Positions 1 to 61,300 of a stretch of DNA of 64,000 nucleotides are shown one piece after another; the first letter of the stretch is position 1; every line of letters starts with the position of its first letter. Under the pieces are notes generated by a model. It saw only the letters and a program-made list of their open reading frames with translations, did not search any database and was not told where the DNA came from. A program made the translations under genes and the position numbers. The stretch is taken from the NCBI GenBank assembly GCA_050084515.1, contig CM114271.1, forward strand, positions 8,928,001 through 8,992,000, given 5' to 3'. This stretch comes from Blasia pusilla (Eukaryota).

Positions 1-504
1 AGTTTGTACAAACTCTCTGTCACCCCTGCATCAGCAAGACCAGAGTCCCCGGAGAAGTATGATTCCTTAAATCGTTTAGCAGCTGCAATTGCTCCAGCTC
101 TGAGTCCAGACCGTATTGTCCGGAACCCTGGCTCACCACTACTGCCTGGTGGTGAGCCGACAGGGGTGGCACTAGAACCTCCAAGCTCTTCCAATGCTGC
201 AACCTCGTTATTGTTTCCACTTGGCCGTCTTCGCCCTGATCCCCCTCGGCGGGGCCTTGTTGGGGGGGCTGGGGCAGCACTAGTTGAGGCGTCTCCAGAC
301 TTTCCAGCTGCTGCAGATGCCTGAGGTGGTGGAGATGCTAGCACGCTTTCTGAGACTATAAGAACATCAATTGCATGCACCACTCCTTCCTTTACAAACA
401 CTTTCGAAAAGACATCCCAAAGTTTCTGCATTAACATTTCAGCTATCTGCAATGCTGTAATGAGAATTGAGGCGTCCTTGGAAGCCAGGACACCAGCCAG
501 AAAG
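1..504 (-). CDS. UPL3: UPL3-like exon 8 (partial, open to the window edge)
   Basis: SFLAGVLASKDASILITALQIAEMLMQKLWDVFSKVFVKEGVVHAIDVLI...AKRFKESYF, open frame to position 1. Confidence 0.88.
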
Positions 505-609
505 CTGCACAAGACACATTTCATCAGATGGACACCACCAAAACCAGAGAGAAATCAACTCTGAACAAGAAAGGATCTCTGAGCTATGTGAACCAGAAGA
601 AAAGCACAC

Positions 610-731
610 CTTGATATGTTCGATTCTTTTAAAAGTGAACGCAACATCTCAGGTGTACTGAAGTGCAATAACTTGTGTGTGGCAGCAAGACACTTCTGTC
701 GAACAGGTGGATTAACACTCGATCCATATAC
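610..731 (-). CDS. UPL3: UPL3-like exon 7
   Basis: VYGSSVNPPVRQKCLAATHKLLHFSTPEMLRSLLKESNIS, followed by a phase-2 intron. Confidence 0.88.
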
Positions 732-834
732 CTGTGGGAAAATGCAGTTGTCCAAGTGATCAAAACAGAAGAAAATACAATCCACTAATCTTCTCGAACA
801 AAAATAGACCTCTTCAAATTTAGATATTGCTCAC

Positions 835-1092
835 CTGTACAAGAACTGGACAAAGATCCACCCCAAACTGTACAAGAAGTTCAGGCTTCTCACGAAGGAG
901 TTTTTCCCGTACTCCTACATCAGGCAAGGACCCTTGAACGGCATCCTCTGATTTACTTGGATTTGTCACCGTGGAGTACTTCCTTAAGGCTCTAGAGACA
1001 TTGCCACCATTCGATGTTGACACTCCAGAAGTTCCAACTGAATCTGGCATTGGTGGAAGTAGCTCGTTCACTAAGTTCACAATCTCGTAAAG
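835..1092 (-). CDS. UPL3: UPL3-like exon 6
   Basis: LYEIVNLVNELLPP...REKLLREKPELLVQFGVDLCPVLVQ, CAG/GT boundaries. Confidence 0.9.
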
Positions 1093-1455
1093 CTGCAGAC
1101 CAGAGGAGTTTTAAGAGTCAAGCATGAGCTTACACATCCATTCACACAAAAACACAGATACCTGGGCCCTCACATCGACAATGAGATTTTCCAGACCTTG
1201 TCATGGCCATCTAAACCATAGTAGACTCTTGCACCTGCTTGTGAAACTTAGAAAACACTCGAAGTTTTAACCTTTTCACATGACAATTGAACACAGCGGT
1301 AACAACTAGATTATCTTGTCATTTATTCTCTTTACCTAGCAGCATTGCACCATGGTCAGAAGGTTCCATCAAGACTTTTCCAGAAATGTAAGCACTAGGT
1401 TTAACCAAATAATCGCATCTCTATGACTTCCCCACCATAGTTAACTCTCACTAAC

Positions 1456-1620
1456 CTGCTCTGGAGGTCGGTTGACCGAAGGGGGAGACACAGATGTGCA
1501 AGATACAAGACCTGCCCCCGCAAGAATGTCCTTCAATATGCTACTAATCCGCAAGAGAAGAAGACTTTCAGCAGCAGCTGCGGATCCGCTTGCGCAAGTT
1601 GATAAGAGTCGTATTAGACC
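1456..1620 (-). CDS. UPL3: UPL3-like exon 5
   Basis: GLIRLLSTCASGS...SVNRPPEQ, CAG/GT boundaries. Confidence 0.9.
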
Positions 1621-1716
1621 CTGTAGGAACACAAGGAAGTCAATCACCCATCTGAGAAATGGTGCCAAAAACCCAGCACACCTGTATGGGCAAAATAGGA
1701 TAGCTGATGGACATAC

Positions 1717-1896
1717 CGTGAACGTTGATGTGCTTAGTGATGTCTGGGGAACCAAGCTTCCAGAAGAATTGCCAACAGATATGAGACGAGCTGTTTGAGG
1801 AATTAAACCATGAGAGCAAAGCGTGTCCAGTTTTTCAGGAGAGGCTGCAAATGATTCTGCGATCCGTGTAAGACAGACTGAGGCATGCTCAACCAC
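1717..1896 (-). CDS. UPL3: UPL3-like exon 4
   Basis: VVEHASVCLTRIAESFAASPEKLDTLCSHGLI...SLSTSTFT, CAG/GT boundaries. Confidence 0.9.
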
Positions 1897-1995
1897 CTGT
1901 TGATGAAAAGTAGAACCGTGTGAGAATCCAGAAGATGGGTAGTTCACTGTAACTCGTTATAATACATTGGTTTGTTTGTCATCTATCAAGAGTAC

Positions 1996-2112
1996 CTTGG
2001 CATCTTGATATTGCAAGAGGTTGGTCAAAATGGGTACAGCCTCTGTGACAAAGTCCGATGCATCAGAAGGTAACTGACGGCAAATATTCGCAGCAGTTGA
2101 GACTGCAACTCT
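1996..2112 (-). CDS. UPL3: UPL3-like exon 3
   Basis: RVAVSTAANICRQLPSDASDFVTEAVPILTNLLQYQDAK, CAG/GT boundaries. Confidence 0.9.
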
Positions 2113-2355
2113 CTGAGAACAGAAAGAATAGACGTCAAAAATCAGTAATATGATCATACAAGGCATCTCCCCAACATTGGAACTGGACACATTCACAACA
2201 TACCCTATTTTGGCCCTAACTCTATCAGGCAAAGGTTCCTTCCTTGCCCTTCTTATAGAACTCGATAGTCTATAAGATCGCATCTTCCAACACAACCTAA
2301 CAACTACAGGTTATACAGATTCTACTCATCAGACAGGGAAGCTCGAGAGGCTTAC

Positions 2356-2466
2356 TTGAACTCCGGTTGAGAAGAAGTCTAGATAAGACAACACAGCAAT
2401 TAGTGTGCCAGCTCGGAGGCAGGCGGTTGGATGCTCGTGAGAGATCTTCTCAAGAGCTTGCAAAGA
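2356..2466 (-). CDS. UPL3: UPL3-like exon 2
   Basis: SLQALEKISHEHPTACLRAGTLIAVLSYLDFFSTGVQ, bounded by AG and GT, in phase. Confidence 0.9.
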
Positions 2467-2917
2467 CTGCATGATGAAGAAACCAATCCACAGTCAACAT
2501 ACTATCGCTCATCTTCTCAAACAGCATTTCCAACAAGGTGAGAGAAAAATGCGCAACCCTGACATACATGAGATGATCAACTTGCCACACGTATTACTTA
2601 CTCCAACCAACAGGAAGCAAACATGACAGAGCTAGAACCAGGAACGGGAGATAACCACAGAAATTCCCTTAGAATTGAGCTCGATTATGATAGCTAAAGA
2701 GGGATTCGGGCCATCCCATAATCCCTCCCACAACAGAGATGGAAGGGGCCATCAGGCAAGCGAACAAAATCATTTTCAACCCAATTTGATCAATCAAAAG
2801 GCTGCTCCCGATGTGGGCATAACTTGATCCGGGCTCGGAGGTGAACAATCCTACAACAGAAGTCCACTCACAGCTCATGAAAAACAAACAACGTGAGAAG
2901 GGCACAGGTTGATTGAC

Positions 2918-3802
2918 CTGTTCTGCCAAATCGATATACTCAATAGTCAAAAGGCGAGCGCAAAAGCACGGAACAGCTCCGTAGTGAACCACGGCTGCAC
3001 ATGAAGATGGCAGCACATCACACAAATGGGTCAAGGCACGGGCTGCCAGTAGCATCATGTCCGGATTGTACTCATAATTGAGAAGCCCCACCAACACCGG
3101 AACAAAGGAGTCTACGGAGAAGCTGCTGAGCGACTCTTCCGTTCCGATCGACAGCAATTCACACAGTTGAGATAAGGAATCTAGTTGCCGCCCCTCCTCT
3201 CCTTCAGCACGGAGCCCAGAGAGAATTCGTTTCAACCTGCTGTTCTGATGAGATGATGGAGTGGATGACGGCAAGAGGTCGTCCAATCCTGCCCCGAGCT
3301 TTCTCAATAAACCATGGAGCGCGCTACTGGCGGATGCTAGATTCTGGTGAAGAGAACTACCACCTTCCCCATCATGGTCATCGTCCCCTGCGCTGGCAGC
3401 TGCGAGTGCTCTATCTCTATCCCGTGTCCGCTCCTTCTCCTTGTCGGGTTCTTTCTCCTTTCCTTTCTCTGCTTCTCTATCCTTGTTCTCTTTTTCCTTA
3501 TCCGCTAATCGATCTTCTTCTTTTTCAGGTTCCTTCTTCGAACCTTTATCTTGGGTACGCTTCGAACCAGACGCTGACGAATCGAGACCAGAATCCATGA
3601 CAGATACAGACGTAGAAGGTACTGAGACAGGGGTAGCAGGGGCTTGAGCGCGAGTGGAAGGACGTGAACGCGGAGGCGCGAAGGATGCAGAGGCTGATGA
3701 GGTCGAGTTCGCTGAAACACGCGCGCGCTTAGACCTTGAAGGCGTGGCAGGGGATGGCCGATGCGACGTGGCCTCCGCCCGCTTGCGGCTGCGCGTTTCC
3801 AT
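2918..3802 (-). CDS. UPL3: E3 ubiquitin-protein ligase UPL3/KAKTUS-like (HECT, ARM repeats), coding exon 1 of at least 8; gene continues off the left edge
   Basis: Starts METRSRKRAEA; contains LHQNLASASSALHGLLRKLGAGLDDLLPSS and LSQLCELLSIGTEESLSSFSVDSFVPVLVGLL...CFCARLLTIEYIDLAEQ, typical of plant UPL3; GT donor at 2917-2916. Confidence 0.93.
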
Positions 3803-4765
3803 AAAACTACCCTCCCCCGTCTTTCTCCCCCTCACCTCTCTCTCCCCCTCTCATACATTTTCTCGATCCTGTCACTTTCCTCGTCCTTCTTCCCACTCCC
3901 TCCCTCGCCCCAATTCCCCTTTCCACTTTTATGATCACAATTCCTCACCGCTTTCTCGATGGCTTGGTTCCTTCTCTCTTCACCCGACGTATCGTGTCAA
4001 CACAACTCAAATCGTCCCACCGCCACACCGCCGCTACGCTCGACGCGCAACGAAACAAATGGTCACTCCGCCCTCCGATCCTTGCCTGTTCTTCTGTTTC
4101 TATGCACTCTTTCTCCTCTTCTGTCTTCCCTCCTCCTTCGCACTTGCCCTACCTCGTCTGTCTACTCTCTCTCTTTTCTCTCCTGTGCAACCCTCACCTC
4201 CGGCACTCTCCTGCTGGCTCGAGGCTCTCCGGAGCCTATGATGGAAAGAATGCAGGAGATGTAGCCAAAAACCCGTCCCCCACTCCTCCATCAGACAGCA
4301 AACGTAGGGAATTTCCCCAAGGTGGCGAGCCGCCTCCCTAGCCTAGTTAGCTGCGAATGACCGACTGCCGGACATCCCGGAACTCCGTCCCATGCCATCC
4401 CCTGCCTGCCATTCCATCCATCCCTGCAACTAGATGCCCAGCGGAACTGCACAATGACCTGACTGAGGGTATCTTGAATCCGATCTACACCGTCCGTTGT
4501 TCAACCTGAGTTCAAAAATTTTGCGATAGAATCTTATTGATTCTTGGTATCTTATGATCTGAAACCGTCAACCTTGTGAATCGGATGCTCTAAACACGCT
4601 TTCAGTAAACAACATTTGGCCATTTGTTGTGTCGATACTAGAGAATTCGATCGTTCTCCTAATAAATCTAACTCCTCCCCTCATTTGAAAACAAGGTATA
4701 ACTAGTAAGGTGCAAGAATAGATGATATTTAATTCTTTATGTGCATAAAAAAATAGTAGTTTATT

Positions 4766-6539: not shown

Positions 6540-7020
6540 GGAATTAGCTAGGAAAAATTCCATGGATAAGATCAATAAGATTACATATCTTATTACTATT
6601 GGTAACCATTTCAGATGGTAACCTTATGAAGTCTTCTCCAAAATGACGGTGCAAAGGTACACGACCCTCTCCTACCTCCAATAACCAATCAATTAATAAT
6701 ATTAATAATAATGCTTGTTGTTGAGCACACATATGACCTTCCAAACTTTGAACTCGCATGTTTGTTGTTAACTTCATCACTTTTATATAGGACCATAGAG
6801 ATGATCTCTTTATAGTGGATTGGATAATTTTTTGACAGTCCCCATGTCAAACAACATGCAATACTTAACGAAAGTCACCACCAAATATCACCAATTTTTG
6901 GCCAAATGGTATTTATCAAATATCAGAAGAGATCACTCCCATAATATCTTGTAAAGTATGATTTACTACCTCAAATGCATGACGAGGAGTCATATTCATC
7001 CCATATAACAAGCATTGCAA
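6540..7020 (-). pseudogene. Helitron PIF1-like helicase remnant (motifs II-III region)
   Basis: Minus strand reads LVIWDE / MTPRHAFEVVNHTLQDIM / PFGQKLVIFGGDFR* / LWSYIKVMKLTTNMRVQ, with stops and frameshifts. Confidence 0.75.
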
Positions 7021-7879
7021 CACCAATTGATCTTTGGGGAAAGCTCCAACCCGTCGGAGTCCGACTGGGTTGCATTCTTTTTCTTGAGCTAGTCAAAACT
7101 CTATGGTAGGGAGCTAGGCGTGGGGGGAAGTAGCAACCCATCGGACTCCAATGGGTTGCGGCTTTACCCCTTATCTAACTCTATAAGGAATGGTTGGGAA
7201 GTGACCTTCACTCCCCGCCTCCATCCTTCGATGTGCAGTGGTCTTGGATCCCAAGACCCTTCTTAGCCTTAATTGGTTTTGACACGTCTTTTTGAATTGC
7301 GTAGGTAATTTTAAACATATCGTGTCTCGCTCGAAGGATTTTGGTGAAGAAGCCTTGGATGATTTCACAAGCTTGTAGTATTTATTCTGCGCCTTCAAGT
7401 ATATCGGATTGGTTTTGGAAAGCGCATCGGTCATTGTATATTTGACTTTGATTTCCTCCATGAATAGAATTGATATATATCAATCAATTTTTAGGCGCCT
7501 TCAACCTGATAGTTGAAAAGCGGCGCCGGCTCCTCCTTTCATTGGCTTTCACTGGACAAAGGCAGCATAGAGACCGTAAATGAGAAAAGGCTGAAAGACC
7601 GAGAGGTCGGAAATTGTAAAGCCTATCCTAGAGTTTGCACTAGCTTAAGATTAAAAAAAAATGCAGCCCGTCGGACTCCGACACGTTGTGGATTTCCCAA
7701 AAGTTCCTCTACCATACCTGCTATTTGAAGGCGAAAGGTGCAACTTGTCTGAGTCCGACAAGTTGCAAGCGGAGAATACTTCTTTTCAAATGTGAATTCT
7801 TTAAGGTTAAGTTGGAGCTTATAGGATCCTTCAAGAGCTTTTTTGCAACCTATAAAAAACCGTCGGGTTGCATGTGATA

Positions 7880-9913
7880 TGAATTCTAAGAGAGGATTGA
7901 ACATTGCAAGATCGTTTCAGAAGGGAATATGATGCACTACTAGATCCAAGAATGCAATTGAGTGAAGAAGATGCATATATTACAATGCACCTTGCACAAT
8001 ACAAGGGATTTCTCGGAGAAGAATTGGTGGACGAGATTCTCGCGAAAGGAGCACAAATAAAGAAGAAGACTTGGGCAAACACCTTCATTTCACAAGATGC
8101 TAGAGTGATCATTCTTTTCTGGTCTAAAATCCAGGTAGCTAAGAGAAGTGCTCAACTAGAGTTGGAGCATAGGGAGAAGGTTACAAAGGCGAAGTGATCA
8201 AAATTCTTCCACGCTATAGTGTCGGTGGCGACAAAATATACAACCAACAAGATGGAGAGGTACATTGCTATGTTGAACCTCGACCTAAGCCCAAACTTCT
8301 ACAAGGAGTTGAAGGCCATTATCAAATGCCAACAAAAGAGGGACAAAGATCCCCATGCACGCATAGGAGGAGAGAAGATGTCCCTTGATCGCGTGCACAG
8401 GTTTGCTCTATGAGGGCTTTTAAGAATTCAGGAGAATCAAACTGATGAAATCAGACTTGAGGGGACGGAGGTAGAGAAGAAGGCGGTACACCACCCAGCG
8501 GGGTTTTTGGACCATGTCATCTCTCAATGGCTGAGAGAATGGTCCTTCAAGGATGCATTGAGGGTGCTCAGAAAATCTATGATTGGTAGTCTTGAAGCAG
8601 AGCTCCAGAAGATTGATCCAGTTCCGGAAGAGGCCGACCTCAAGTCAACTTTGGATTACAAACTTCGGCTAGAGGACGCTCGTGATAAGTCGGAGAAAAA
8701 CCTGAGATTCTGGCTTATTTTCCAAAAATAGATTGTTTTGCAAGGGAATGTTGAGAAAAGGAGATAGGCAACCCCAAAAAGAGGGATTTTTCGAAGAAGA
8801 AGACAAATATTCTAGAGCAAGCGGTTGAGTCCTCCCACCAAAAAGAAGCACAAAGGATGATGTATAGGTTCCTCGTATTCAATGTGAATGTAGGTACTTG
8901 GAGCAAGTATCCGACCACCTGCAAATTTTGGGCTACAATTGGAAATGGAGATGGATTCTCCATGTATGACGTGGACATGGCTTAAGAGATAACAAAGTAG
9001 GAGGTCCTTAATTGTCAAATTTGGTTGGAATACAATGACCCAGAGGAGATTAGCGATGACAAGCTGAGATCCTTCCATGATGCACTTGGTGCAGGCAACG
9101 AGGAGATCCCCAACCTCTTGAAGTTTGAGGAGTACTTTGCAGGTGATGTAGAGGAGCAGGCTCTTGAGAGCACTGGTCTGGTGTCCAAGGTAGTCATAGC
9201 CAAGGATAAGTCACAACGGGTCTCAAGGTGAAGGCGAGGGATCCAGGCAGTATGAGGCTAGATCATCGAGGCGGGAAGGACGGGCAAGGGGTGCTAAGAA
9301 ATAGACGTCTATTGATTTAGAGATTACCAAGACCCTGACACTCAGGCAACCAATTCGCGAAAAGCAAAAATGTGAGATGCCACGTTCCTTAGAGTTAGGA
9401 AAAAAATGTGTCCAATACTCTCCATCATCCTTGGGCAAGCCGAGGGACGGCGCAAGGAGGAGCAAAATCCTCCAACATCAGACCTTGCTCTTGGATGAAC
9501 TTGATAAATTCTTGAGTTAGGAGTCCACCGCTGCCCTCGAGAAGCTGACAGTCTTGGGACGAAAGCTTCTTCGAAACGACCATGCCCCATGGAGTGTGAA
9601 TTAGGTAGTTGATGATGTTGTTGTGGACCTCCTCATTGCAAACTTGCCATCCGGATTCAGGTTGTGGGATGATAACCCACAAGACATCGTCCCAGATTGG
9701 AACATCGCTCTCACTTTTAACTAGATTGCGTTGTTGTTTTCCTTCACCAACGCGTACATAAGTGACAAGGGATGTTTCCTTGTTTTGACTAGAGGAAGTG
9801 AAGACCAGCTCTTCAACCTTCAATGCGTTAGGAGATCACTCAAGTGGCAGATGGCACGGTCTTGGGTAGTCCGGAATGACTACCCCTTGAGGTCTCCAAC
9901 AAATCAACTCCAA
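7880..9913 (+). pseudogene. Long accessory ORF of the Mutator-like element, ending in a degenerate amino-methyltransferase-like N-terminal half
   Basis: Collinear ORF pieces broken by stops and frameshifts; VDLLIANLPSG (9623-9655) and NAYISDKGCFLVL resemble motifs IV and VI; GTAAGT donor at 9914. Confidence 0.5.
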
Positions 9914-10548
9914 GTAAGTTATGAAAAAAATTGGCAACACGACTACAACCTATCAGATTCAAATGGGTTGCACATATGTTAAGTTTTTTATTTATCTTTT
10001 CGCAGCCCGTTGGATTTGTACGCCCTTCATAAGTGGCTCCCATGTGTGTTAGATACTTTTGGGACTCTAGTTAGGTGAGTAGAAGGAGCTAGAACAACAA
10101 TCTGCAATTTAAATGGGATCATTGGTGCTATTTGGACCAAGATGGTGGCAGCTCACAAATCAGATTGGGATAGGAAATTAGCTTCAGCTGTCCATGCTTA
10201 CAACACAGCTGAGAAGAGTACAACAGGGAAAAGTCCCTACTTCTTGGTGTATGGGCAGAACCCTCTCTCGGTAGTAGAGTTGGAGTTGAAGACTGACCAT
10301 ACTCTAGAAGGGCACTTCCAACCTGAAGGTGGCATAGATAGCAGGCTGGATATGATTGATGCCCTAGAGGAGGACAGTAAAGGCAAAGATTAGAGAAGAC
10401 CAAGGTCGTTCAAAGAACAAAGGAAGATGAGGTTTGATAACCGAATACGGCATGATCCAAAGTGAAGGAGGGGGACATGGTGTCGATGTATGATAGTTTC
10501 GACCCCAAAAGTTTCAGAAAGTCGCACATTTGATCGCTTGGGCCTTAT

Positions 10549-10890
10549 CGGGTGAAGCGCATCCAAGGGAGTGATGAGAGCAGGTGGAGTCAAGAGCATC
10601 CGGGAGTGATGAGATCAGGTGAAGAGCATCCAGGGAGTGATGAGAGCGGTGGAGTCAAGAGCATCCAAGGGAGTGATGAGATCAGGTGAAGAGCATCCAG
10701 GGGAGTGATGAGAGCAGGTGGAGCTGAAGAGCATCCAGGGGAGTGATGAGATCAGGTGAAGAGCATCCAAGGAAGTGATGAGAGCAGGTGGAGCTGAAGA
10801 GCATCCAAGGGAGTGATGAGAGCAGGTGGAGCTGAAGAGCATCCAGGGGAGTAATGAGAGCAGGTGGAGCTGAAGAGCATCCAAGGGAAG
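10549..10890 (+). repeat. Minisatellite of mixed 38-bp and 32-bp units in the LTR
   Basis: Units GTGATGAGAGCAGGTGGAGCTGAAGAGCATCCAAGGGA and GTGATGAGATCAGGTGAAGAGCATCCAGGGGA. Confidence 0.95.
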
Positions 10891-11663
10891 CTCGAACCAG
10901 CTTGAGAAGAAGCAAGCATGGGAAGAATGTAAAGGTAGGTCTTACCTTCAAGCATGTCCAAGAGACAAGTCGAGCCTATGCCATCAATGCTGCTCAAGAG
11001 ACTTTAGTTAGGACACGTTCAGAAGTAGATGAGGTAGAAATTTCAGGCAGTAGATGCCTTGGAGTAGATGCTTAGGGGGAGGTAGATTTGTAGGAAGGTA
11101 GGAACCCAGAATGCCAGAGAAGCCCAAGTGGGAAGAGGGCTCTCAGCTTCACTTATAAATACTCTGTTGGGTTTGCTTGAAGGCGAGCATATACATGCTG
11201 TTGGCTAGTAGACAATTGATCTCTTGAGCCAAGCTAACCAGCAGAGTTATGTGCTCCTAGATCTAGGAAGTGTGTAGTGTGCTTGAAGGGGGCTGAGACT
11301 AAGAAGGTCTCCCATGTACTCGATGATTTTATGATACACAGAAGGTAGCCCAGTGAAATGAGTTCACTCCATTGCCCTCAGAGATCTGAGTATGTGCATG
11401 ATTGAGTGATGAGTTGGGGGGCTTGATGAAGGGAGATTCTTGGAGCTGATTCAATTGATCATTCAAAAGTGTAGTGAGTGGACAAGAGGTTGTACCAGTA
11501 GAGGGGAGGCAAGCTTGGGTTCCAAGATTGTGCTCCACCAAGGTATGCTTGGAAAGCTTGTTGTTCTGCCCACCTAAGCTTGGCCTTTGACACCAATCAC
11601 TGATTATTTCTAGGGTGTGACAACCTGGACTTCCAAGTCTGGTAAGTGATAAGAGTTAGTGAG

Positions 11664-11665
<2 letters not shown>

Positions 11666-11753
<88 letters not shown>
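11666..11753 (+). repeat. (GA)n microsatellite, about 44 units
   Basis: Directly visible. Confidence 0.98.
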
Positions 11754-11757
<4 letters not shown>

Positions 11758-12499
11758 CATGCTTAAGCTCCCCTATAGGTAGAAGACCATGGGCTCAGCT
11801 TGTTAAGTCTCCTACTACCTGAACAAGAAGGGAGAACAAAGGATCAGCAAGGTAAGAGGAGAAGAAGAAGGTGATTGCACTACCTGATCGGTTAGGAGTT
11901 GGGTGTACTTTAGAGGATGTCCTTGGAACATTCAACTAGTCCAAGGCAGCACATTGGAGGACCTTATGCTGCCCTGGTGATTCTTGAGTGTGATTTCTAA
12001 GTAGAGTGTGCTTGTTGGGTTCCACTGGCCACTCCACTTAAAGCACTCAAGAGAAAGGAAGGAGTTTTGGTTAGTAGGGTGAGGATAGTATTGTGATACT
12101 GAAGTGGAGAGAGTTTCTCCAGCCTCTTAAGGTAAAGAGGTGGGGTTTACAGTTCTTAAGGAGTACATCTTGTAGATCTGATCTTCTGATCTGGCCCTAA
12201 GCTCTTACATGGGACCGAACTGGTGGAACTAGCAACATTTTCACCTGGGTTGTGTGCTGGCCATGTATTATTTGGTGAGACATTTTGGCGCGGCGCGGAG
12301 AGTGGACTCTGGACCAAAAGTGAAGGAGACTTATGAGTGAGCGGCATCAAAGACATTCAGCAAGGAGGGCACGGAAGGCTGCTGCAGATCACCAAGAAGA
12401 GAAAGAAAGAGCTTCCATAGGAGACTCTTTAGTGGGGAGTTTAAGTTCAGCACCTACTATAGCAGCCGGCTCAGTTCAAGTGGTTCTTGCTCAAGCTAC

Positions 12500-15400
12500 C
12501 TCAGTCAAGATGCCTCCCTCATTTCGAATCAAGTACACCAGATTTTGAGGGGATGGTAGTCAAGATGTGGATGACTGGATGGAACAATACCTAGCAACTT
12601 TGGCAGCCAATAATGAAGGGGATGAAGACACAACCAAGAGGTTGTTTCGTGGGCTGATTGATGGAGAAGCCTTGCGTTGGTACAAGGCCTTGGAGGTTGG
12701 ACAAAAAGCTGATTGGCCAAGGCTGAAGTCAGCATTTGAGCAAGAGTTTAGGGAGATTGGGGCAGATTCAAGGGTGATGTCACGACTGAATTCTATCAAG
12801 ATGAAGGCAAGTGACACACTAAGGAGCTACACCCAGCGTGTCCAGTAGCTGATAGGGAAGTTGTCCATAGTACCACCAACAAACCTTCAGTTGGAGTGGT
12901 TTATTTATGGTCTACGAGAGTTGTTGGATTTTGATGTGAGGAAGGCAGATCCTCAAACATTAGGAGCTGCTGTTGATGTGGCCAAGAGATGTGAGAAGTC
13001 AGCCCTACTATCAGGCCGCTCGGCAGAGAAGAAGCTAAAGAAGAAGGTCAAGTTTGAGGACTCTGATGATAGTGATGAGTACTTGGTGGAGGACAGAGAA
13101 GAGAAGTCTAGCCATCAGAGAGGTAGAGAGACATGTCCATCACAACTCACCAAGGTTGTGAAGGATGAAATGCAGACCTTAAGGGCAGCCATAGAGGAGG
13201 TGAAGGTGCAGATGGCTGATATCAAGAAGAACCGCAAGGCAGTCCCTATGACCCGCACTAATATTTGGTGCACCCGATGCAAGAAGGAGGGTCACTTCTC
13301 TCATGATTGTCAAGTTGATTGGAGGATGATCCAAGAGATGGAGCTAAACTCTCAGGAGCTAGAGCTCAAGGACATAGAGTGTCTTTATGCTATTCAACAA
13401 GGAGCTCTACGTGTTGATATTAGAGCTAGACCAGGGAGTTCAATACCAAGAATCCCTGGTGCTTGTTGGGAATGTGGGGAGGTTGGACATATCTCACCTG
13501 AGTGCCCACACCAAAGGATGCCTGGGGAGTACATCTTGTTGTGTAGAAATTGCAGGGAAGAGGGGCACAAGGCTTCCAGGTGCCCAAAGCCTGTGCAACT
13601 TAGAGTGTTTCCCCGCTATACCCCAATCCCACCTAGGGAAGAGACAGTCCTCAACTGGTCCAACAAGGTAGCAGTAGAGCAGCAACCAAGGGACGAGGGC
13701 ACGACTTCAAATGTCAGATGGATCCAGGACTATGAAGAGGAGAATGTGTGGAGAGTGTCTACCAGGAGGCAAACCAATGAAGAGAAGGGCAAAGGGCCTG
13801 CAAGAGAGGAGATCAGATCAGGTGGAGAAGAGGAGGAAGAAGCTCCAGCCTTTGAGTTGCCTGATGTTACTGAAGAAGTGCTAGCCCACTTGGAAGAGCT
13901 ACATACCAAGGAGGGAGAGGCCAGTACCAAGAAGACTACAATGGTGGTAAGACCCTCTTTGTCCCCTGCAGCCATAAGGGAGTTGCACAACAACATCATG
14001 TTGGACATTGAGAAGAGGTTAGCTGAAGTCACCATTGGGCAGTTGTTGAAGGATAATCCAAGGTACCGAAAGCAAGTGTTGGATGTAGTAGAGACCAAGA
14101 GGAGGAAGAGGCTCCCACCTACCATTTCAGAGGTGAGGTACAGTGAAGTGGAGGATTGGGAAGCACCTGAGATCAACACTGAGATTGAAGGGTGTTTGAT
14201 CACAAGGGTACCAGTGGATGGAGGTTCAGGTGTGAATGTCATGATGGACCAAACTGCTGTTGACCTGGGTTACACCATATTCGAGCCTACCCCAAAGATA
14301 TTGAGGATGGCTAACCAAGAGGAAGTGGTACCAGTGGGTAAGTTATCTCAGGTAGTTACTAGGATGGGAGAGTTGGAGTATAAGCTGAACTATGTAGTAA
14401 TCAGGCTACCCATTCCTCCTACATTCCAAGTTTTGTTGGGAAGGCCTTGGCTATACAAGGCAGGAATTTTGGAGGATTGGAAGAAGAAGGAGTTTAGGAT
14501 TGGTTCAGTAAGGATCCCATGGGGGCTTCCAGCATACCAAGGTGAGACAATAGCAAGCTCCATGGGGTACACGACTGAGAGTGAGGAAGTAGAAGAAGAA
14601 GAGCAAGCTTCATATTGCTGGATGGTGGTGAATGCCTTCAAGACAGCAACAGAAAGAGAGTTTGACTTCAACCAACCAGAGGAAGAGCATGTGCAGGTCA
14701 AGGAAGGTGAAGAGCCAGAGGACACCACCAAGACTTGGCCTCTTACATCAAATGAAGGAGATCAAACAAGACTAGCTATGGGGAAGAAGAAGAAGAATGA
14801 GCATGCCCTAGGAGAACTTGATGTCCCACTCACCAGTGCCTGGGTGCACCAGCAACTAATGGAGGATCCAGGTATGAAGGGCTATCATGAGACCTTTGGA
14901 AGAGAGCAAGAGGAGGACCTCTCCGTTGTTGTAAAACCAATTCAGTATGAGAAGATGAGTCTTACGCCAGATATGGAGTTCTATGTAGGGAGGACTATCC
15001 AGGAGGTGGAGAAAGAAGCCTACAAGGAGTTGTTGCTAGAGTTCAAGGATGTGTTTTCTTGGTCACATCATGACTTGACTGAATCTCCCGAGTATGGAGA
15101 ACATCGAATAGACTTGAAGGAGGATGCACCATAGTTAGGCAAAGGCAATCAGGCTCAATCCAAAGTACTCCTTGAAGGTGAAGGAGGAGTTGGATAAGCT
15201 ATTGGAAGCAGGATTTATCTATCCTATAAAACATAGTGAGTGGGTATCCCCCATTGTGATTGTGCCAAAGAAGGTGGGAGCTGATGGAATAGCCAAGATC
15301 AGAGTTTGTCAAGACTATAGAAAGTTGAATGAGGCTACCAAGAAGGACTTCTACCCGCGCCCTTCATCGATATCATATTGGACCATGTAGCCGGGTCATA

Positions 15401-17955
15401 CGGTGTACACTTTCTTGGACGGTATGTCGGGTACTACTGACCTTCATCAGAGTTGGAGACCAGATCTACACTACATTCACCACTGATTGGGGGACTTATG
15501 CATTTCGTAGGATGCCCTTTGGATTGTGTAATGCTCCAGATACATTTCAGGGGATCATGACAGACATTTTCCATGATTTCTTGAGGCATTTTCTAGAGGT
15601 CTTCATCGATGATTTTGCAGTTTTCAGTGAAAGGGAGGAGCATCTACAACATTTGAGGCTTACCTTTTAAAGATTTAAGGAAGCCAATCTGAAGTTAAAC
15701 CCAAGAAAGTGCTTCATTGGGATGGAGAGTGGGATACTGTTGGGGCATAGAGTATCAGCCGAGGGGATTGCTGTAGACCTGGATAAAGTGACCACCATCT
15801 TGGCTCTCAAAGCACCCACTAGTGTGAAAGAAGTTCGAGGCTTCCTTGGCATGGTTGGTTATTATAGGAGGTTTATAGAGGGATATGCTAAGATTGCTCT
15901 CCCATTGACTATCGCGCCCCTACTCTCCTTGAACGTCAATCTTTAGTGTTGCGGAAGCGTACGTTCAGTAGGTCACGAACTCATCGCCGATCTGCACCCA
16001 AACACGCACTCTCGTTAGTTGGGTCTGGGCCAACTAGCGTTCCAACCCACCGAGTCCTCAACTCGGCGTCTCATCAAGCTCAACCTTCCTTAGTTCCTAG
16101 TTTCCAAAACATGGCAAGTCCTTCAAGACTTGGAACAGACTTCCTGGTTAGTCCAGGGATCTGAAACGGCACTTGCGCGCCTAGCGATCCCAACTATTCA
16201 ACGTTCCTCGGGTGAGTTCCGAACCGAGACCCAAGTAAGTGAGTCGCGGGGTGGAATCCAAGAGGGATGTCTAAAATCGCCTCAATGGACTTGGTGCAGG
16301 TTTTCCAACCCAACCCCCAAACTCGCGTTCCGTTCCATGCCCTTGAGGCGCCCAAGGTGGGGTTTGGGTTCCAAGCACTCTCGGAGACCTTCCCCCTTAC
16401 TAGTACTTCTGGGGTTCTCCAATAACCCCTCCCCTTTGGAAAAAGAGGGTCGGGCCCTTCATTGTGGCCCTCAACCCGACTCCACTTATAGTCTTTTTCG
16501 GGTTTTTTCTCAGATGCTGCTTATGCGTTTGCAGTGATTTTTAATGCGTTTGGACCGGCTCTTCATATGCTTTCCAACGCACCCTTATTTGATCCAAACG
16601 CATCTTGGCGCTAAAAGTTATGGCCATAAATACAGTCGGAAACTCTCAAACGCTAGTGGCGTCCCAAATCCGGATCTTTCCTTTGGCAACCCACTTCCTA
16701 GACTCGACTTCTTTCAAGTCTCATTCCGCGTTTGGTCCAGGTTTTTCGGTCGCGACCATAACATCTGAAATGCGACTCCTCGCTCGCGTCTCGTCTTATG
16801 TCTCTTCTTTGAGACTACTCCAACGCGCAAACCATCTTAGCGTGAGCCCGCTAATGTTCTGATGTTCCGCTTGGCACTTGTTTGGTCATGAGGGTCGCGA
16901 CATTGACCGAGTTGTTGAAGAAGGAGGCTACATTCCATTGGGCAGATCGCCAAGAGGAAGTCTTTAGGGAGCTCAAGGCAAGGATGGTGAAGGCACCCAT
17001 GATGGCAGCACCAAGGTTTGATAGAGAGTTCCATGTAACTGGTGATGCTTCTGGATTTTGCATAGGAATTATATTGTGGCAGTATGGAGATGACAAAAAG
17101 AGGAGAGGCCAATTTATTATGCTAGTAGGCAGTTGAGTTCCGCTGAGAGAAACTACAGCACTACTGAGAGAGAGTGCTTGTCTATCATTTGTGCGTGTAA
17201 GAAGTTCAGGCATTACCTCCTCGGCTATGATGTGGTCTTTCACATTGATCATGATGCCATCAAACATTTGGTCAACAAGGCTGATCTATCCGGCAGAGTT
17301 GCAAGGTGGGTTATGCTGCTACAAGAGTTCCAATACCAGATCAAGGTGAAGCCAGTGATGGGGAACAAGAATGTTGACTACCCGTCAGGCTAGAGGAGGA
17401 AGAGATGAGAAACTCTATTGTTGCCAAGTTTCTGATGAACACCTCTTTGCCATTTCAGAAGAAGGGGACGAGTATGCTGAGATTAGAAGGTATCTCAAAG
17501 AGGAAGTTGTTCCACCCTCGAACTCTCAAAAACAAAAGATGTTTATGGTTAAGGCAGGGCCATATGCATTGATCGAGGATGTCTTTGTTCAAACTTGGAC
17601 CAGATGACAGGTTGAGAAGGTGTGTGAGTAAGGGAGAAAGTCTGAGAATCATGCACACATTCCACTCAGGAGAGGAGGGGGGTCACTTTCGAGTGGAGAC
17701 CACCATCAAGAAGATTCGAACTGCAGGGTACAAGTGGCCTACCCTCCATAGAGATGTGCACAAGTACATCAGAAGTTGTGACCCTTACCAACATTCAGGC
17801 AAACCTTCAGTTAAGGATCACTGGCCACTCACACCTATCATCCTTTTCGGTCCTTTTGCTAAGTGAGGAATTGACTTCATTGGTCCTATCACTCCTGCTA
17901 GTAAGGGCCATAGAAATAGGTACATTATTCTAGCCACTGATTATGCTACTAAGTG
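12500..17955 (+). pseudogene. Family A gag-pol: gag with three CCHC knuckles, aspartic protease, RT, RNase H, integrase N-terminus
   Basis: CTRCKKEGHFSHDC, CWECGEVGHISPEC, CRNCREEGHKASRC; VDGGSGVN; MPFGLCNAP, FIDD; DASGF, NYSTTERECL; HHCC-type zinc finger region; interrupted by a solo LTR at 15910-16902. Confidence 0.9.
15910..16902 (-). mobile_element. Solo LTR of the chromovirus family, inserted in family A pol
   Basis: TA(TG)...CA ends, TSD TTGAC (15905-15909 and 16903-16907); removing it restores ...IALPLT|ELLKKEA. Confidence 0.93.
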
Positions 17956-18079
17956 GAAGATGAGGTTTGATAACCGAATACGGCATGATCCAGTGAAGGA
18001 GGGGGACATGGTGCTGATGTATGATAGTCGACCCCAAAAGTTTCCAGGAAAGCTGCACATTTGACTGCTTGGGCCTTAT

Positions 18080-18425: not shown

Positions 18426-20599
18426 GCTCGAACCAGCTTGAGAAGAAGCAAGCATGGGAAGAATGTAAAGGTAGGTCTTACCTTCAAGCATGTCCAAGAG
18501 ACAAGTCGAGCCTATGCCATCAATCGCTCAAGAGACTTTAGTTAGGACACGTTAAGTAGATGAGGTAGAAATTTTGCAAGAGATGCCTTGGAGTAGATGC
18601 TTAGGGGAGGTAGATTTGTAGGAAGGTAGGAACCCAGAATGCCAGAGAAGCCCAAGTGGGAAGAGGGCTCTCAGCTTCACTTATAAATACTCTGTTGGGT
18701 TTGCTTGAAGGCGAGCATATACATGCTGTTGGCTAGTAGACAATTGATCTCTTGAGCCAAGCTAACCAGCAGAGTTATGTGCTCCTAGATCTAGGAAGTG
18801 TGTAGTGTGCTTGAAGGGGGCTGAGACTAAGAAGGTCTCCCATGTACTCGATGATTTTATGATACACAGAAGGTAGCCCAGTGAAATGAGTTCACTCCAT
18901 TGCCCTGTATCTGAGTATGTGCATGATTGAGTGATGAGTTGGGGGGCTTGATGAAGGGAGATTCTTGGAGCTGATTCAATTGATTATTCAAATTGTGTGG
19001 CTCTACTTTTGAATATTTTTTGCATTGTCGATTAGTTTCTGACAAACTGAAACTTGTGTTCTTTGAATCCAAAATTTGTTGTATACACTGCTAGCGTTTT
19101 GCAACTTGTTTGATTTTGACAAGTCAAAATTTGAATTTTTGCTATTCTATGTATGGTGTTAGGATTGTGTCTCTCATAACCTATTCTTGCAATCCGTCAG
19201 ATTCTGATGGGTTGCATGTATGAATGTAGATTTCCTATCATTTCTTCATATGGATGTGAAGTTCCTAAAATTTTGCAGTTTTCCTGTCTTGCTAACTCTT
19301 GGATACCAATATCTTGCAAGAAGTCTATTTGTTGTCCTACTTCTTTTATTTTTCTTACCCTTGATGAGTCATGTCTGTTTTCAATTTTTCCTCGTCTCCT
19401 ATCTTGCAACTTGTTGGATTCCAACGGGTTGCATGACTAAATAGTTGGAACCTAACTTCATCTTTCTTTCATCATGTCTTGCAACCTGTCGGATTCCGAC
19501 AAGTTGCATGTCTAAATGGAACCTAGGAGTTTCATGCATTTCTCTACTTTCATATGTATGTTACGTTCCTATTTCTTTCAAATTTTTAGTGGTAATTTTT
19601 CAGTATAATCCTACAATGGTCATGTCTAATTCCGACAGGTTGCTTGTAGTGTCTATAGTAATCTTTCGTTCTTCATTTTTTCTTACCTCCTTTTTCTGTC
19701 ATCCAACTTGTCGGATTCGATAGGTTGCATATAGGATGATTCCCTTGTATTCATTTCTTTCTCTTTCTTCACTTGTTATGTCACTATTATTTCTTGACTT
19801 CTAACATCTAGCAATCTGTCGGATTTCGATAGATTTGGCGGGTTGATTGCTTCTCTTTTCCTCTCCATCCTACCTTTTAGGCATTCTTCTTGGCTTCCTT
19901 TACATGTAACATGTGTGTTTAAACAGAGTTGCCAAACGCCCATCAGCCTTGTAATGAACCACTCAAGGAAAAAGGTACTCTTTTAATCGCAAAGTATTAA
20001 GTTCGTTCCCAAGAGATCATTGTTTCCCGAGTTAAGAGAGGTTTTATAAGAAATATCAAGAATAACTCCTTCTTCACTAAGCACTTCACCAGTTTCAATA
20101 ACTAAGTCTTCACTAGTACAAAAGAACAAAATGATTTTCTTCCCTCTTGGAAAAGACTCTTCTCAAGTGCTGGAAAGAATCCTACAAATCTTGGATACCA
20201 AAACTTCAACAAGATCCTCGAAGAGGTCTCAAGAAGGTTGCGGCTCATCCTACTTTCATAACTTAATCTGTCATGGCAGGTTTCTCACTATCTAACATCT
20301 TTCATACGGTCTTCTTGATTCTCCTTTTGAAATTATGAGATCAAAGACTCAACTCTCATCCATAGTGAAGCCCAATAAGATTGGCGTTCAACTCCGCACC
20401 TCAAAAAGAATGAGAGAAGACATTTCTACTGCATCAAAGAGTGGAGGGAACTAGAAAGTAGTACAAGCTTCAGAGGGTATAGGACTCTTTAGCTTGGATC
20501 ATCCCCAAAGACTTCTCCACACAATCCACCAAAAGTATTTGGAAACTCAAGACACAAGGGAATGACCCCGTGCTCTTCTGCTTTATCTTTTTAATAGTC

Positions 20600-21201: not shown

Positions 21202-21733
21202 AGCCTCCTAAAGACTCCATGTACCCATTCCTTAGCCAAGATTCTAACTCATTGGTGGCCTCCGGGTCTTCTGAGTCATTGTTGGCAATATTGCAATCCT
21301 AGACTTTCTACTAAACTCACCAAATCACATGTTATATTTTCCAATTCCTTTATCTCCAAGACTGTCATCATTGAGTGAAAAAATCCCATCTGATGGATCT
21401 GCATTGATAAGATACCATCCTACCAACAACACTGGCCTACATAGAGAGTGATTTTAGCATATCTAAAGTGGTATCCACTGTTCCATCTTCACATCTTAGT
21501 ATTAAAAATGATGTTAGTTTGTGCCCCAATGTGGTCCACTTCTTACTCTCTTCAAAACATTTCTTGCATTTGAAGTAGAGGAGATAAATTAAAATAGTGG
21601 AAATTTTTTAAGAGAGGTTAAGGATTTTGGCTCCTTTTTTTTTTAAAGAAAGACTCCCCTCTCTTACTCTCTCCTATCAGAATACCAGCCCCCAACAAAT
21701 GTCACCAATGTCAGTTACATTAGTTTTCTTCAA

Positions 21734-48584: not shown

Positions 48585-48699
48585 CCGCACTTCCCCTGCA
48601 CTTTCCAAGTCGGAGGACGAACAAACTTTGAATCCCTTTGCGGATTTAGGGGACGAGGAACCTATCAGGCCAACAAGGCCTAAACCTATACCTCCCCCT

Positions 48700-57997: not shown

Positions 57998-58321
57998 TCA
58001 CTCGTTATCATCCGAGAGCTCTTTCACAATTATTGTCGGCCTTGCCCTCCCAATTTTTGGAATCGTGGGAAGTGACGATGGTGTCACTACCAGTGGTGGG
58101 TCTGGAACCGGAGCTCTCGGCTTCGGAGGAGAGTTGTACGCCCCAACTAGCATGTAGTAATCTTCCTTTGCCTCTTTGCAAAGGTCAAACAGTTCCTGCC
58201 TTCCCTCGAGGCAAAGAATGTTCCTGCCACTATGGCAGGCCCCTCTAATACTTGCCCCTGAAAGGCCCACTAAGTTGAACACCAAGTCACCCGGCCTTGA
58301 GCACAGCTTGATGAGTGTCAC
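57998..58321 (-). pseudogene. C-terminal SAM-binding half of a beta-class N4/N6 DNA methyltransferase-like domain
   Basis: LIKLCSRPGDLVFNLVGLSGASIRGACHSGRNILCLEGRQELFDLCKE follows the pattern LI..S.PGD.VLDPF.GSGT...A...GR..IG.E. Confidence 0.6.
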
Positions 58322-61300
58322 ATCAAGGAGGATGTGGCGAAGAAAGTGGCCGAGGTCTACAGAAACTCTTCGGGTTCAAAGCCCGGAGTGATCAAGCTAA
58401 CAACAACATCACAAATTTGTGAACAATTGCTTGGAATCCTTGGACAGGGCGAGATCACGGCTACTGAGGAGAAACAACTATGGGAAAATGTCGCATTTCT
58501 CGCTGATCCTCAATGCTTCCGGAATTTTTTGCGTCAAATACGGGTACGGGATGGAAAGACGGCCGAAATGGATGCCATTTCCCGAATCAAGGCTAACTCC
58601 AGATTTCCAATCATTCAGAGATGGCAATTCATGGGCCAGGGAGGCGAAGGATCCAAGGCCTTTGTCTTCAAAATGTCAACGACAGGTCCGTCGAGTGGCC
58701 TCGATCTTATAGAACGAATGAGGGAAGGGGAAGAGCTTTAAGGGAGCTGGATAAGCTTTGATATTTGCTACAGAGTGCTGAATGGATGGTTGACAATGGG
58801 TGCTCATATTTATGACCATGTGGAGAAGGGACTCAAAACTTTATTTGTCTATGAAGTAAAAGCAAAAGACATTGGCAGTTTGAAGATGTGTTGGTTACTC
58901 GTATTGGAGGTGGTGAAGGAAAAAAAAAGGCCACCTCCGAAAATTTATGGGTTCATGGCGGACAATGCACAACGTGGGTGGATTGCTATCAGGGAAGTGT
59001 TATGGGGTGGAGAGGTTCAACCGGAGAGGGAAGGGTTGGATGCTTTCCATTGGCAACAGTCTATGACCCGGTACAACCAATCTTGCATCAAGGAGAATAA
59101 GAGGACAGAGCATGTCACTCTCCTCCAATGATGCAAGGACATCAAAACCTTTAAACAGGCCATGGAATGCCAAGAAGAACTTCATGGGTGGTGGAGGAAA
59201 CATGCGATTGAGGGGTACAAAGAGTTATGCTTTTGGCTGAGTTGGTGGACTGTACGAATGAGACAATGGGGAAACTTCATGCGGGAGGTGAGTTCACTAA
59301 TTTGTCTCATCAAGCTCATGCTGAAAATTGTTTGAAGAGTTGTAGCTTAAGTTGAGAAGCGTGGGCAGTATAGGGATCTCAAAACAAAGAAACCAAGCAA
59401 CCCGTCGGATGCGACGGGTTGCATCAAGAAGGTTTGGGTTACCTGTCGGAGCGCGACATCATGCACGAGGAATGTTTGTGCAACCCATCGGAACCCGACA
59501 GGTTGCATGAGTGTGCAACCTGTCGAATCCCGATGGCTTGCAAGTTGCATGTATACAAGGCCTGCAAATAGTTGGACTTGGGTGTGTTGCAAGCCGCAAG
59601 GCTGCGAGTTTACTCGATCTGCAACCCGTCGCATTCGACAAGTTGCATTTTTTTGACTTATGGGATTCCGACTAGTTGCGTCTGTATGTGACTCTCGCAT
59701 TCAGACAGGTTGCTGCTGTCACAAAGTCGCATCCAGAAAAGTTGCATCAGTTCAAGTTAACTGGAACTTGTCGAATTCCAATAGTTGCAAAGCTTCCTAT
59801 GTGGACACTTCTTGCAAGCCAACGGAATCCGACAGGTTGCACAAGGATTTTCGAGATCTGACCGGCCTGCTTCTCACAACCCATTCGATTTCGATGGATT
59901 GCAGTAGCAGGTTTTTGGGTGCTAGGTTACTAGGACATTCCAAGGATGTCTCCGACTTGCAACCCGTTTCAAGTTGGAGGCTCGAAAATCCATGTGCAAT
60001 TCATTGGATTCCGATGACTTGCACTTGGATCTTCCAGCTTGGAGTGGCCAAAGTTACTTGCAACGCGCGTGAAATCTAACGGGTTGCACTAGATGGTTCC
60101 TAGGTGTTGCAACACGTCGTAAACCAACGGGTTACACAGCCATTCATGGAATGCCTCCGACTTGCAACCCGTCTAGTTTCGACCGCTTTTTTCTTTGCTC
60201 ATAGCGCTATTTTGGTTCCCTTCTCACATTTCCATCGTTGCAGGGATTGAACATTCATGAAAATGCCCTTTGCCACAACACAAGTGGAGTAGAAAGTGTT
60301 CATTTCTCCTAGAGGTCGTGACAAGCATGCCAAAGAATTTCACTTGTGGAGGCATCCCGACAAAACCAGGCAAGAGCAATGCTACAATCTGCAGCATCCC
60401 ATATATTCCTCACAAAAGGCATACCAAAAGGAAGGGGGCCTTTGATCTACGAGCTCTATGTCAAGGCCACTGTGAGATCTGGTGATGAGAAACTCTATGT
60501 AAAAGCCTTCAATCGGTGCATAGCAGGAACTCCCCTCGAGCAAGACATACACATTGGTGGGGATATTTTTGGGCGCGTTTCAAGACGTCCCATACATATG
60601 GTGGTAGAGCAGTCCGAGCAAGACTTGTGGAGACCAGATAACTATCTTGACTTCAGGCAGGTGAAAAGGCAACATCAAGGAACAAACCCGGTGATTGATT
60701 TGGATGAGGAAATCACGCCGCCCAAGTATTCGGAGACCCTAGATTGCTCTCAAATCCGTGATGCACTATCTTCTCCAAAATCAATGAATGTTTTATTTCA
60801 AAAGCCCTCCGTTGCTGGAAGTTCGCAACATCCGGTCGCTGGGGTGGTTCAACAATATGGGATTTCGGTCATGGAGGTGGATTGCAACCTGAAACGGTCG
60901 CATATATCTCGGAGCAACCTTGGATGTGCACCCACTTGCAGGGCAGGATCCGATGGCATTAGGAGAGCATGCGGCACTTTCCTTAATAAGAACTATACAA
61001 GGATTGGACGACCACTGCTTGGATTTTAGGGACTCAAAACCTTTGATCGTTTCTCCAGGATCCGGGATCAATTGAAATACTTCTTCTGCCCAAATTAATC
61101 TTGCACTTTCCGGAAGTCTTATCCGGCTGCCATTGGAGCTCTAGGGAATACCCCCATGATTTGGCCCATGGCCGTTGGTACGAATTGCATTTAACACGAA
61201 GTGGGAAATCTTACAAGTGCCGGTTTGAGACTCGTAGACGAAGGAAGTTCATAGCATGTTCGCATTACAGAGACGTTCACATTTTTTATTCAACCCAAGA

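Follow-up and report, generated by a model that had tools for sequence, protein, structure and literature searches.

A dead copy of a multi-copy liverwort gene family with a tail that plausibly derives from a disabled half of a beta-class DNA methyltransferase

Described methyltransferase modules and the present locus

The DNA methyltransferases of Pfam family PF01555 (for example, phage SfV orf48, phiKO2 Gp52 and PY54 gp60) are described enzymes with which the locus considered here can be compared. The N-terminal half of their domain presents a fixed order of features, i.e., a hydrophobic strand ending in D at motif IV, a tryptophan linker, a strand following G and a W...N..P block, and the same order is found in the C-terminal block of a broken open reading frame (ORF) at positions 7901-9913 (+) of a 64,000-nucleotide stretch of the Blasia pusilla genome (contig CM114271.1, positions 8,928,001 to 8,992,000 of the forward strand; hereafter the window, to whose first letter all positions refer). 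In the explanation preferred here, to which we assign a probability of about 0.5, this ORF represents one copy, dead and truncated, in a multi-copy and probably transposon-borne gene family, the protein of which would combine a long helical N-terminus with a tail of about 100 residues, most likely a diverged catalytic half (motifs IV to VI) of the PF01555 type. The tail would then be, plausibly and not demonstrably, a catalytic half, now disabled, from an amino-methyltransferase of the beta class.

Where the PF01555 enzymes have (D/N)P(P/A)(Y/F), the family has (D/N)LP(T/K/S), with no match at the level of hidden Markov models (HMMs). Unlike the enzymes, the family carries neither a target-recognition domain nor a half that binds S-adenosylmethionine (SAM) in the same sequence, and its block is preceded by a predicted helical extension of about 370 residues.

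It is already established that DNA methyltransferases of the prokaryotic type have shaped the biology of liverworts. In the report on the liverwort Marchantia, MpDN4MT1a/b are described as tandem, sperm-expressed host genes that encode active beta-class N4-cytosine methyltransferases with a TSPPY motif, and the N4-methylcytosine (4mC) made by DN4MT1 is reported to be essential for sperm (bioRxiv 10.1101/2021.02.12.428880). Compared by these descriptions only, they have in common with the relatives of the present family the liverwort lineage and, if the preferred explanation is right, the prokaryote-type beta-class fold.

Mobile elements provide the second point of comparison. According to a 2026 survey, prokaryote-derived adenine methyltransferase (DAM) domains, consisting of CD-1, a target-recognition region and CD-2 and retaining the catalytic pocket, occur in DIRS and long terminal repeat (LTR) retrotransposons of eukaryotes; LTR elements that carry a DAM domain are reported there to be absent from Streptophyta, and the introduction mentions that VANDAL elements counter methylation (bioRxiv 10.64898/2026.05.21.726589). 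What these elements, as described there, share with the present locus is the idea of a prokaryote-derived methyltransferase module in a eukaryotic mobile element; their DAM domains sit in retrotransposon polyproteins, whereas the 7901-9913 ORF does not. We take the DAM domain to be of the Dam type, a class other than beta. Keyword searches of the open-access literature (supplements not covered) found no paper on a module resembling PF01555 in a repeat family of streptophytes. If true, the preferred explanation would provide a new instance in which epigenetic hardware has been borrowed by mobile elements, and the borrowed part would probably be an inactive binding module. The window copy itself is of little importance, as the gene at 7901-9913 is dead; its value is that of a pointer to a family with only two annotated members among about 15 billion proteins, next to which the window also has a PF01555 fragment standing apart, and it should be regarded as a lead instead of a proven enzyme relic.

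The broken reading frame and its family

The stretch 7901-9913 (+) is one collinear broken reading frame comprising three frame segments, two frame changes and 12 in-frame stops (3 + 6 + 3; Table 1). A preliminary description, made from the letters of the window alone, had reported a collinear broken ORF of about 2 kb between 7880 and 9913. The ORF proved to be real, with relatives in a phmmer search and collinear tblastn matches when the better of these was aligned back to the window; its end was given exactly and its start only approximately, since the frame opens at 7901, directly after a stop. The residues quoted in that description (VVDLLIANLPSGFRLWDDN..VPDWN..LLFSFTNAYISDKGCFLVL) are present in frame within 9305-9982, with VDLLIANLPS from 9623, and segment 3 read on to 9982 (translated with X at stops) contains four stops. 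Following VDLLIANLPS, the block continues with a hydrophobic strand containing D.GC and then with W...W.(I/V).N..P(M/L)R....Q.

An exhaustive phmmer search of 1,835,955,588 representative proteins with segment 3 (E <= 0.001) returned two matches, each alone in its 90% cluster and named as a hypothetical protein of a Riccia liverwort, namely KAL3687003.1 of Riccia sorocarpa (P0004; 488 aa; E 2.2e-14) and KAL2653794.1 of Riccia fluitans (P0005; 305 aa; E 8.7e-8). Word-based protein searches revealed no relative beyond P0004 and P0005, and a metagenome scan with the alignment of the three family sequences (window copy, P0004 and P0005; hereafter A2) matched 130 pattern stretches that included 0 relatives. 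When P0004 was aligned to the window by tblastn, matches were obtained at 8246-8608 (frame +2), 8827-9201 (+1) and 9581-9919 (+2), with 1, 2 and 2 internal stops, respectively. Because these segments are collinear, lie in two frames and have stops inside, the broken ORF is genuine and the locus a pseudogene. The family to which it belongs is very rare. A second copy of the ORF was not detected in the window by blastn or tblastn.

No relatives other than the two Riccia proteins are detectable, and these run collinear with the window ORF across the helical region and the C-terminal block: segment 1 is common to them from about 8110 onward, and segment 2 corresponds to a middle region homologous to P0004 residues 195-325. 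Their blocks are 34% (P0004) and 27% (P0005) identical to that of the window copy and have the same D-L-P motif, and the similarity breaks off in both at one and the same position. The Riccia genes are annotated as intact, in contrast to the stops and frame shifts of the window copy; furthermore, the window ORF reaches about 70 codons further upstream than the Riccia proteins, and P0005 is without most of the middle region. The long N-terminal region of the family protein, to which no function is assigned, is predicted to be mostly helical (the N-terminal 363 residues in an AlphaFold2 model of full-length P0004).

The size and state of the family were assessed by mapping reads of the same species, from one run of DNA and three of RNA, at an identity of at least 85%. 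Among the 1267 DNA reads mapped, 14 are at least 99% identical to the window copy, 314 fall at 95-99%, 352 at 90-95% and 587 below 90%; as many as 1225 fit only in part, and the depth per bin ranges from about 0.3 to about 96, being highest at 7950-8159 in segment 1, where a few RNA reads from diverged relatives are also found. Since the DNA reads are mostly partial, with identities mostly well below 99% and an uneven depth, the locus is one of numerous diverged copies that make up its family, in which conservation is confined to short patches such as 7997-8100. The read identities thus reveal the many diverged genomic copies by which a transposable element is recognised. Each RNA run contributed 15-18 reads, all partial and 0 of them at an identity of at least 99%, mostly over 7425-8159 and 8895-8999. 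These reads derive from diverged relatives of the window copy, and because such reads map to 7997-8100, some family member is transcribed. The patch 7997-8100 is the most conserved part of the family among genomic copies and the main site of RNA mapping (10 reads in run X12).

Likeness of the C-terminal block to PF01555 enzymes

The template for comparison consisted of five phage enzymes (confirmed with Pfam at E 1e-24 to 4e-44) and 49 bacterial relatives (open frames of at least 200 aa, from 80 loci kept), giving 54 PF01555 sequences in 348 columns. The hhalign comparison of A2 with this template yielded a score of 28.8 (P 8.5e-4, probability 23.8%) with query columns 24-89 on template columns 76-142 (Q24-89 on T76-142). 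In this register, the I/VDLL..DLP strand lies on VDLvvtDPPY and the strand with D.GC on the RVLKp.G strand; at a looser threshold, the alignment lengthens to Q17-115 on T69-170 and brings the W...W.I.N..PMR block opposite the ivW.K..n block. The preliminary description had proposed that the block is the N-terminal half (motif IV to about VI) of a beta-class domain. The register it predicted was recovered in the comparison of profiles, whereas a match of sequence to profile was not.

The principal opposing explanation, which is rather unlikely in our estimate, holds that the block is a lineage-specific domain of an orphan repeat-family protein without methyltransferase ancestry, and that its resemblance to the enzymes, made up of a hydrophobic strand followed by D-x-P, a tryptophan and another strand, arose by chance or by convergence. 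Against this, the same register is reached independently from P0005 alone (P 1.1e-3) and from P0004 alone (P 0.012), from the two Riccia sequences taken as a pair (P 8.6e-4) and from the full-length proteins (P 0.0032 for P0005 and P 0.05 for P0004). In column shuffles of A2, a score of 28.8 was reached in 1 of 603 (shuffle mean 13.1, standard deviation 2.6; top 31.5), and the reversed query scored 14.5. The controls also remained at background: the N-terminal 363 residues aligned elsewhere on the template (P 0.1), and an MT-A70 profile scored 12.4. Moreover, when P0004 residues 364-488 were submitted to the ESM Atlas, the feature matches included clusters of PF01170, PF05175 and PF01555, and all 10 of the 10 structural matches were class-I methyltransferases (template-modelling (TM) scores of 0.53-0.57, all graded "under the bar"). 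Residues 1-340 of P0004 gave no feature match and mixed folds (TM 0.24-0.33), so that the methyltransferase leads are confined to the C-terminal part.

Several results weigh on the other side and favour an orphan domain over a relic of a methyltransferase. Searches of sequence against profile are blank in both directions. For the window pieces and for the Riccia proteins alike, no methyltransferase family came up in Pfam, NCBIfam or PHROGs at E as high as 10, which includes the Pfam N6_N4_Mtase check suggested at the outset; the gathering score of PF01555 is not reached by the window pieces, P0004, P0005 or window positions 9725-9982. The PDB, searched by sequence and with the A2 profile, gave no match, and a tblastn search of 50,697 phage records with the block produced one match, attributable to chance. 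Conversely, HMMs built from 5 or 54 PF01555 enzymes miss 9623-9913 in a six-frame translation of the window, and the family HMM run against 401 bacterial genomes returned noise (61 genomes at E <= 10; best E 0.008); out of 12 loci followed up from this reverse search, four (L168, L171, L175 and L176) were dropped for stops or short frames, and the open frames of the 8 scanned included 0 DNA methyltransferases.

The profile comparison itself has its weaknesses, as the hhalign probability is only 24%, one shuffle scored higher (31.5), and the column-shuffle null may be too lenient, since shuffling destroys local strand patterns. With the profile of the five phage sequences the register is the same and P only 0.093, and the window sequence alone against the full template gives P 0.13. 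Structure prediction, the other check suggested at the outset, yielded no confident fold: AlphaFold2 models from three sequences have a predicted local distance difference test (pLDDT) score of 41 for the block and 38.6 (about 39) for full-length P0004 and are unusable, a Foldseek search of the PDB with the low-confidence block model returned unrelated weak matches that included no methyltransferase, and the Atlas model, whose matches are all under the bar, has a pLDDT of 0.33. Finally, neither defined termini (terminal inverted repeats (TIRs) or LTRs), nor a target-site duplication, nor a linked transposase were found that would tie the ORF to a defined transposon. On all of these results, for and against, the METHYLTRANSFERASE-likeness of the C-terminal block would reflect descent from the catalytic half of an amino-methyltransferase at roughly even odds.

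The motif IV position deserves separate consideration, as motif IV is needed for amino-methyltransferase catalysis. The 54 PF01555 enzymes have DPPY (32), DPAY (10), DPPF (8) or NPPY (1) in this column, the remaining 3 being misaligned or other, whereas the family has DLPT and DLPK in Riccia and NLPS in the window copy, i.e., the consensus (D/N)LP(T/K/S). The motif (D/N/S)PP(Y/F/W/H) required after beta-strand 4 is therefore lacking in 3 of 3 family sequences, a non-canonical state that also suits an orphan domain. A degenerate DPPY position (NLPS) had already been pointed out in the window copy; because both Riccia relatives share the degeneracy, it is a trait of the family and not the result of decay of the window copy. 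The replacement of the catalytic tetrapeptide argues against catalytic activity, and for this reason the family protein is probably not an active methyltransferase; the module may only bind DNA or a partner.

Derivation of the block from another class of amino-methyltransferase, either a gamma-type PF05175/PF01170 enzyme with its SAM part upstream or MT-A70, is extremely improbable. It could draw on the Atlas, in which PF01170 and PF05175 are the top named features (0.91-0.92), above PF01555 (0.86-0.87), and in which the structural matches include MTS and RsmB/F families. A gamma-type order would, however, place the SAM part in the upstream residues 1-363, which are predicted to be helical, have no glycine-rich SAM loop or beta-alpha-beta pattern and give no Atlas lead; there is also no Pfam match to PF05175, PF01170 or MT-A70. 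In the comparison with MT-A70 (PF05063; a shallow profile of 56 close relatives, effective number of sequences 1.6), the score of 12.4 corresponds to P 0.36 and DLP does not fall on DPPW.

If the block is a PF01555-type half, as preferred here, it stops in the middle of the domain. The three family sequences diverge 1-2 residues past Q(F/L)(K/Q)V, with P0004 ending 3 residues on and P0005 19 on, and this point corresponds to column 170 of the 348 of the PF01555 profile. No downstream SAM-binding half (motif I, FxGxG) is present in the same polypeptide in the three sequences, of which the Riccia gene models are possibly truncated and the window copy is cut at 10023. Either more exons exist or the family retains a half-domain only. 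The GTAAGT immediately past the end coordinate of the preliminary description, which had named it as a donor, is indeed present, and its position exactly where the similarity ends favours an exon end, with GTAAGT as a candidate phase-0 splice donor. Among the RNA alignments listed, there is no splice joint or loose end at 9913, with almost no RNA covering that stretch (over 9840-9944, the mean depth is 0.15 in one run and 0 in the other runs).

Further downstream, the window copy is interrupted at about 10023 by a junction with a 5'-truncated gypsy fragment, which starts inside the integrase region and is followed by an LTR. Positions 10023-10772 match 55056-54325 in reverse (85%), and that other copy runs upstream into reverse transcriptase; the junction is a truncation and not a clean insertion. 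The sequence that once followed GTAAGT in the window copy may have been deleted. Any further exon would have been lost from this copy, since the truncated gypsy element takes over about 110 bp past GTAAGT, and for the same reason the missing second half of the window copy says nothing either way.

The PF01555 fragment at 57998-58375, the palindromes and the surroundings

A SAM-binding half had been reported at 57998-58321 by the preliminary description, and this claim held: the ORF 57998-58375 (-) is, as judged from profile matches, a genuine C-terminal fragment of PF01555 with motif I. Its hhalign probability is 89% (P 2.2e-6) over template columns 231-279 (the S-R-P-G-D-L-V / FxGxG region), and it matches three PHROG families of DNA methyltransferases (E 0.0045, 0.025 and 0.34). 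In tblastn against phages, 65 records matched (E 0.06-1); among the 30 matches listed, 26 fall on DNA methylase genes, 1 falls on the same gene of SfV under the label 'unknown', and 3 are in records without annotation. The sole match of an hmmsearch with PF01555 HMMs in the six-frame window, 58318-58172 (-), lies in this ORF. The fragment is likewise degenerate, with NLVGLSG in place of the DPFxGSG of the enzymes, and a word-based search found no longer protein matching it.

The preliminary description had gone further and taken the block and this fragment for the two halves of one intron-split beta-class methyltransferase gene, belonging to one transposon family and preserved in two differently damaged copies. 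The two pieces do occupy complementary, non-overlapping template columns (T69-170 and T231-279 of 348), both are degenerate at key motifs, and both stand beside clusters of the same 27-bp palindrome and read towards a shared block that had been described as the element end; furthermore, the truncation at 10023 could have removed a second half from the window copy. Only the orientation relative to this block withstood comparison, as the loci do not represent one element in two collinear copies. They share no sequence except the palindromes and the block 21440-21720 / 56350-56064, for which a search for TIRs gave nothing beyond CT-rich matches of low complexity. Between the palindrome clusters, one locus has the 7901-9913 ORF in sense and the other has different, opposite-strand ORFs together with the C-terminal fragment. 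Upstream of this fragment, on its own strand, nothing P0004-like, PF01555-like or methyltransferase-like was found; instead, the space is occupied by protein-like ORFs of the + strand (58301-59335) that stand head-to-head with the fragment and have an 82% copy at 40445-40924. The search for an intact copy holding both halves, proposed as a check, yielded none among proteins and metagenomes, the middle of the domain (T171-230) was seen nowhere, and both Riccia gene models end at the same point. On the side of the 7901-9913 ORF, tblastx, HMMs and ORF inspection found no C-terminal methyltransferase half in 18993-21900. A single split gene is therefore considered distinctly unlikely, and the link between the block and the fragment is left as a testable idea.

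The 27-bp palindrome occurs at 36 sites in the window at up to 5 mismatches and at 13 sites when no more than 3 mismatches are allowed, the chance expectation being 0.00 (clusters in Table 1). It is of a perfect type with a GANTC-like centre and is highly repeated genome-wide (DNA read depth to about 250 at 7666). It may be a miniature inverted-repeat transposable element (MITE) or the binding-site array of an element. That the family protein binds these palindromes is pure conjecture. A corresponding scheme, which we hold to be very unlikely, would have a liverwort mobile family whose disabled, intron-split beta-class module, together with the helical region, reads the palindromes instead of methylating them, and would thus represent a DNA reader of methyltransferase origin within a transposon of streptophytes. 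Binding to palindromes with a GANTC-type centre might then shield the element from host methylation or recruit host factors, and the module may stem from the same kind of prokaryotic transfer as the liverwort N4-cytosine methyltransferases. VANC of the VANDAL Mutator-like elements, which binds repeated motifs, offers a functional analogy only, being an accessory transposon protein paired with short motifs repeated in non-coding parts.

Table 1. Features of the broken ORF and of its surroundings in the window
Feature	Position	Strand	Remarks
Segment 1, broken ORF	7901..8751	+	3 in-frame stops; N-terminal region predicted helical
Segment 2, broken ORF	8755..9300	+	6 stops; frame shifted by one
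Segment 3, broken ORF	9305..9913	+	3 stops; returns to first frame
Methyltransferase-like block	9623..9913	+	VDLLIANLPS at motif IV position; NLPS at 9641-9652
GTAAGT, candidate phase-0 splice donor	9914..9919	+	After ..NQLQ; where all three family members lose similarity
PF01555 SAM-binding (motif I) fragment ORF	57998..58375	-	Residues 20-68 match
Shared block	21440..21720	+	Versus 56350-56064 reversed; about 230-290 bp, about 70% identity; element end of the preliminary description
27-bp palindrome cluster, 5 copies	7046..7871		Upstream of the ORF; consensus approximately GCAACCNGTCGGANTCCGACNGGTTGC
Two palindrome copies	9945..10028		Just past GTAAGT, up to the junction with the gypsy fragment (about 10023)
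Palindrome cluster, 6 copies	19101..19837		Just beyond the LTR retrotransposon
Further palindrome clusters	56662-57767, 59480-60135, 63203-63764		From site search
PIF1-like helicase fragment	6544..6846	-	Perhaps to about 7040; Pfam PF05970, E 4.5e-8
TRIP12/UPL3-type HECT E3 ligase, N-terminal region	1-3850	-	Host gene with introns; TPR_TRIP12_N, E 3e-36

The window is eukaryotic and plant-like and is full of nested repeats. The stretch 10023-18992 is a composite gypsy structure comprising the truncated integrase fragment, an LTR, a 761-aa gag-pol open frame (12849-15134) and a second LTR; two elements with one LTR in common, in tandem or joined by recombination, may underlie it. Its LTRs (10422-11467 and 17955-18992) are 95% identical, and those of another pair (41216-42216 and 47584-48585) are 97% identical. 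Beyond the composite element, 18993-21700 contains no protein-like ORF, and the AT-rich stretch that follows the palindrome cluster at 19101-19837 runs to the shared end block. A retroelement at 27929-30717 (-) encodes the core of an integrase (rve, E 1.7e-8) and, after it, a PHD finger (E 1e-5). In two ORFs located upstream on that strand, 30717-30421 and 30420-29908 (-), a C5-cytosine methyltransferase was considered on the basis of PCQ-type, D-P-R-S and E-N-I motifs seen by eye, and was rejected as Pfam and PDB searches lent it no support.

The only neighbours of the 7901-9913 ORF are the palindrome clusters and the opposite-strand PIF1-like helicase fragment; the latter is of the kind found in Helitrons and breaks off where the first palindrome cluster starts. 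The TRIP12/UPL3-type gene at the beginning of the window is the only clear non-repeat gene seen in it.

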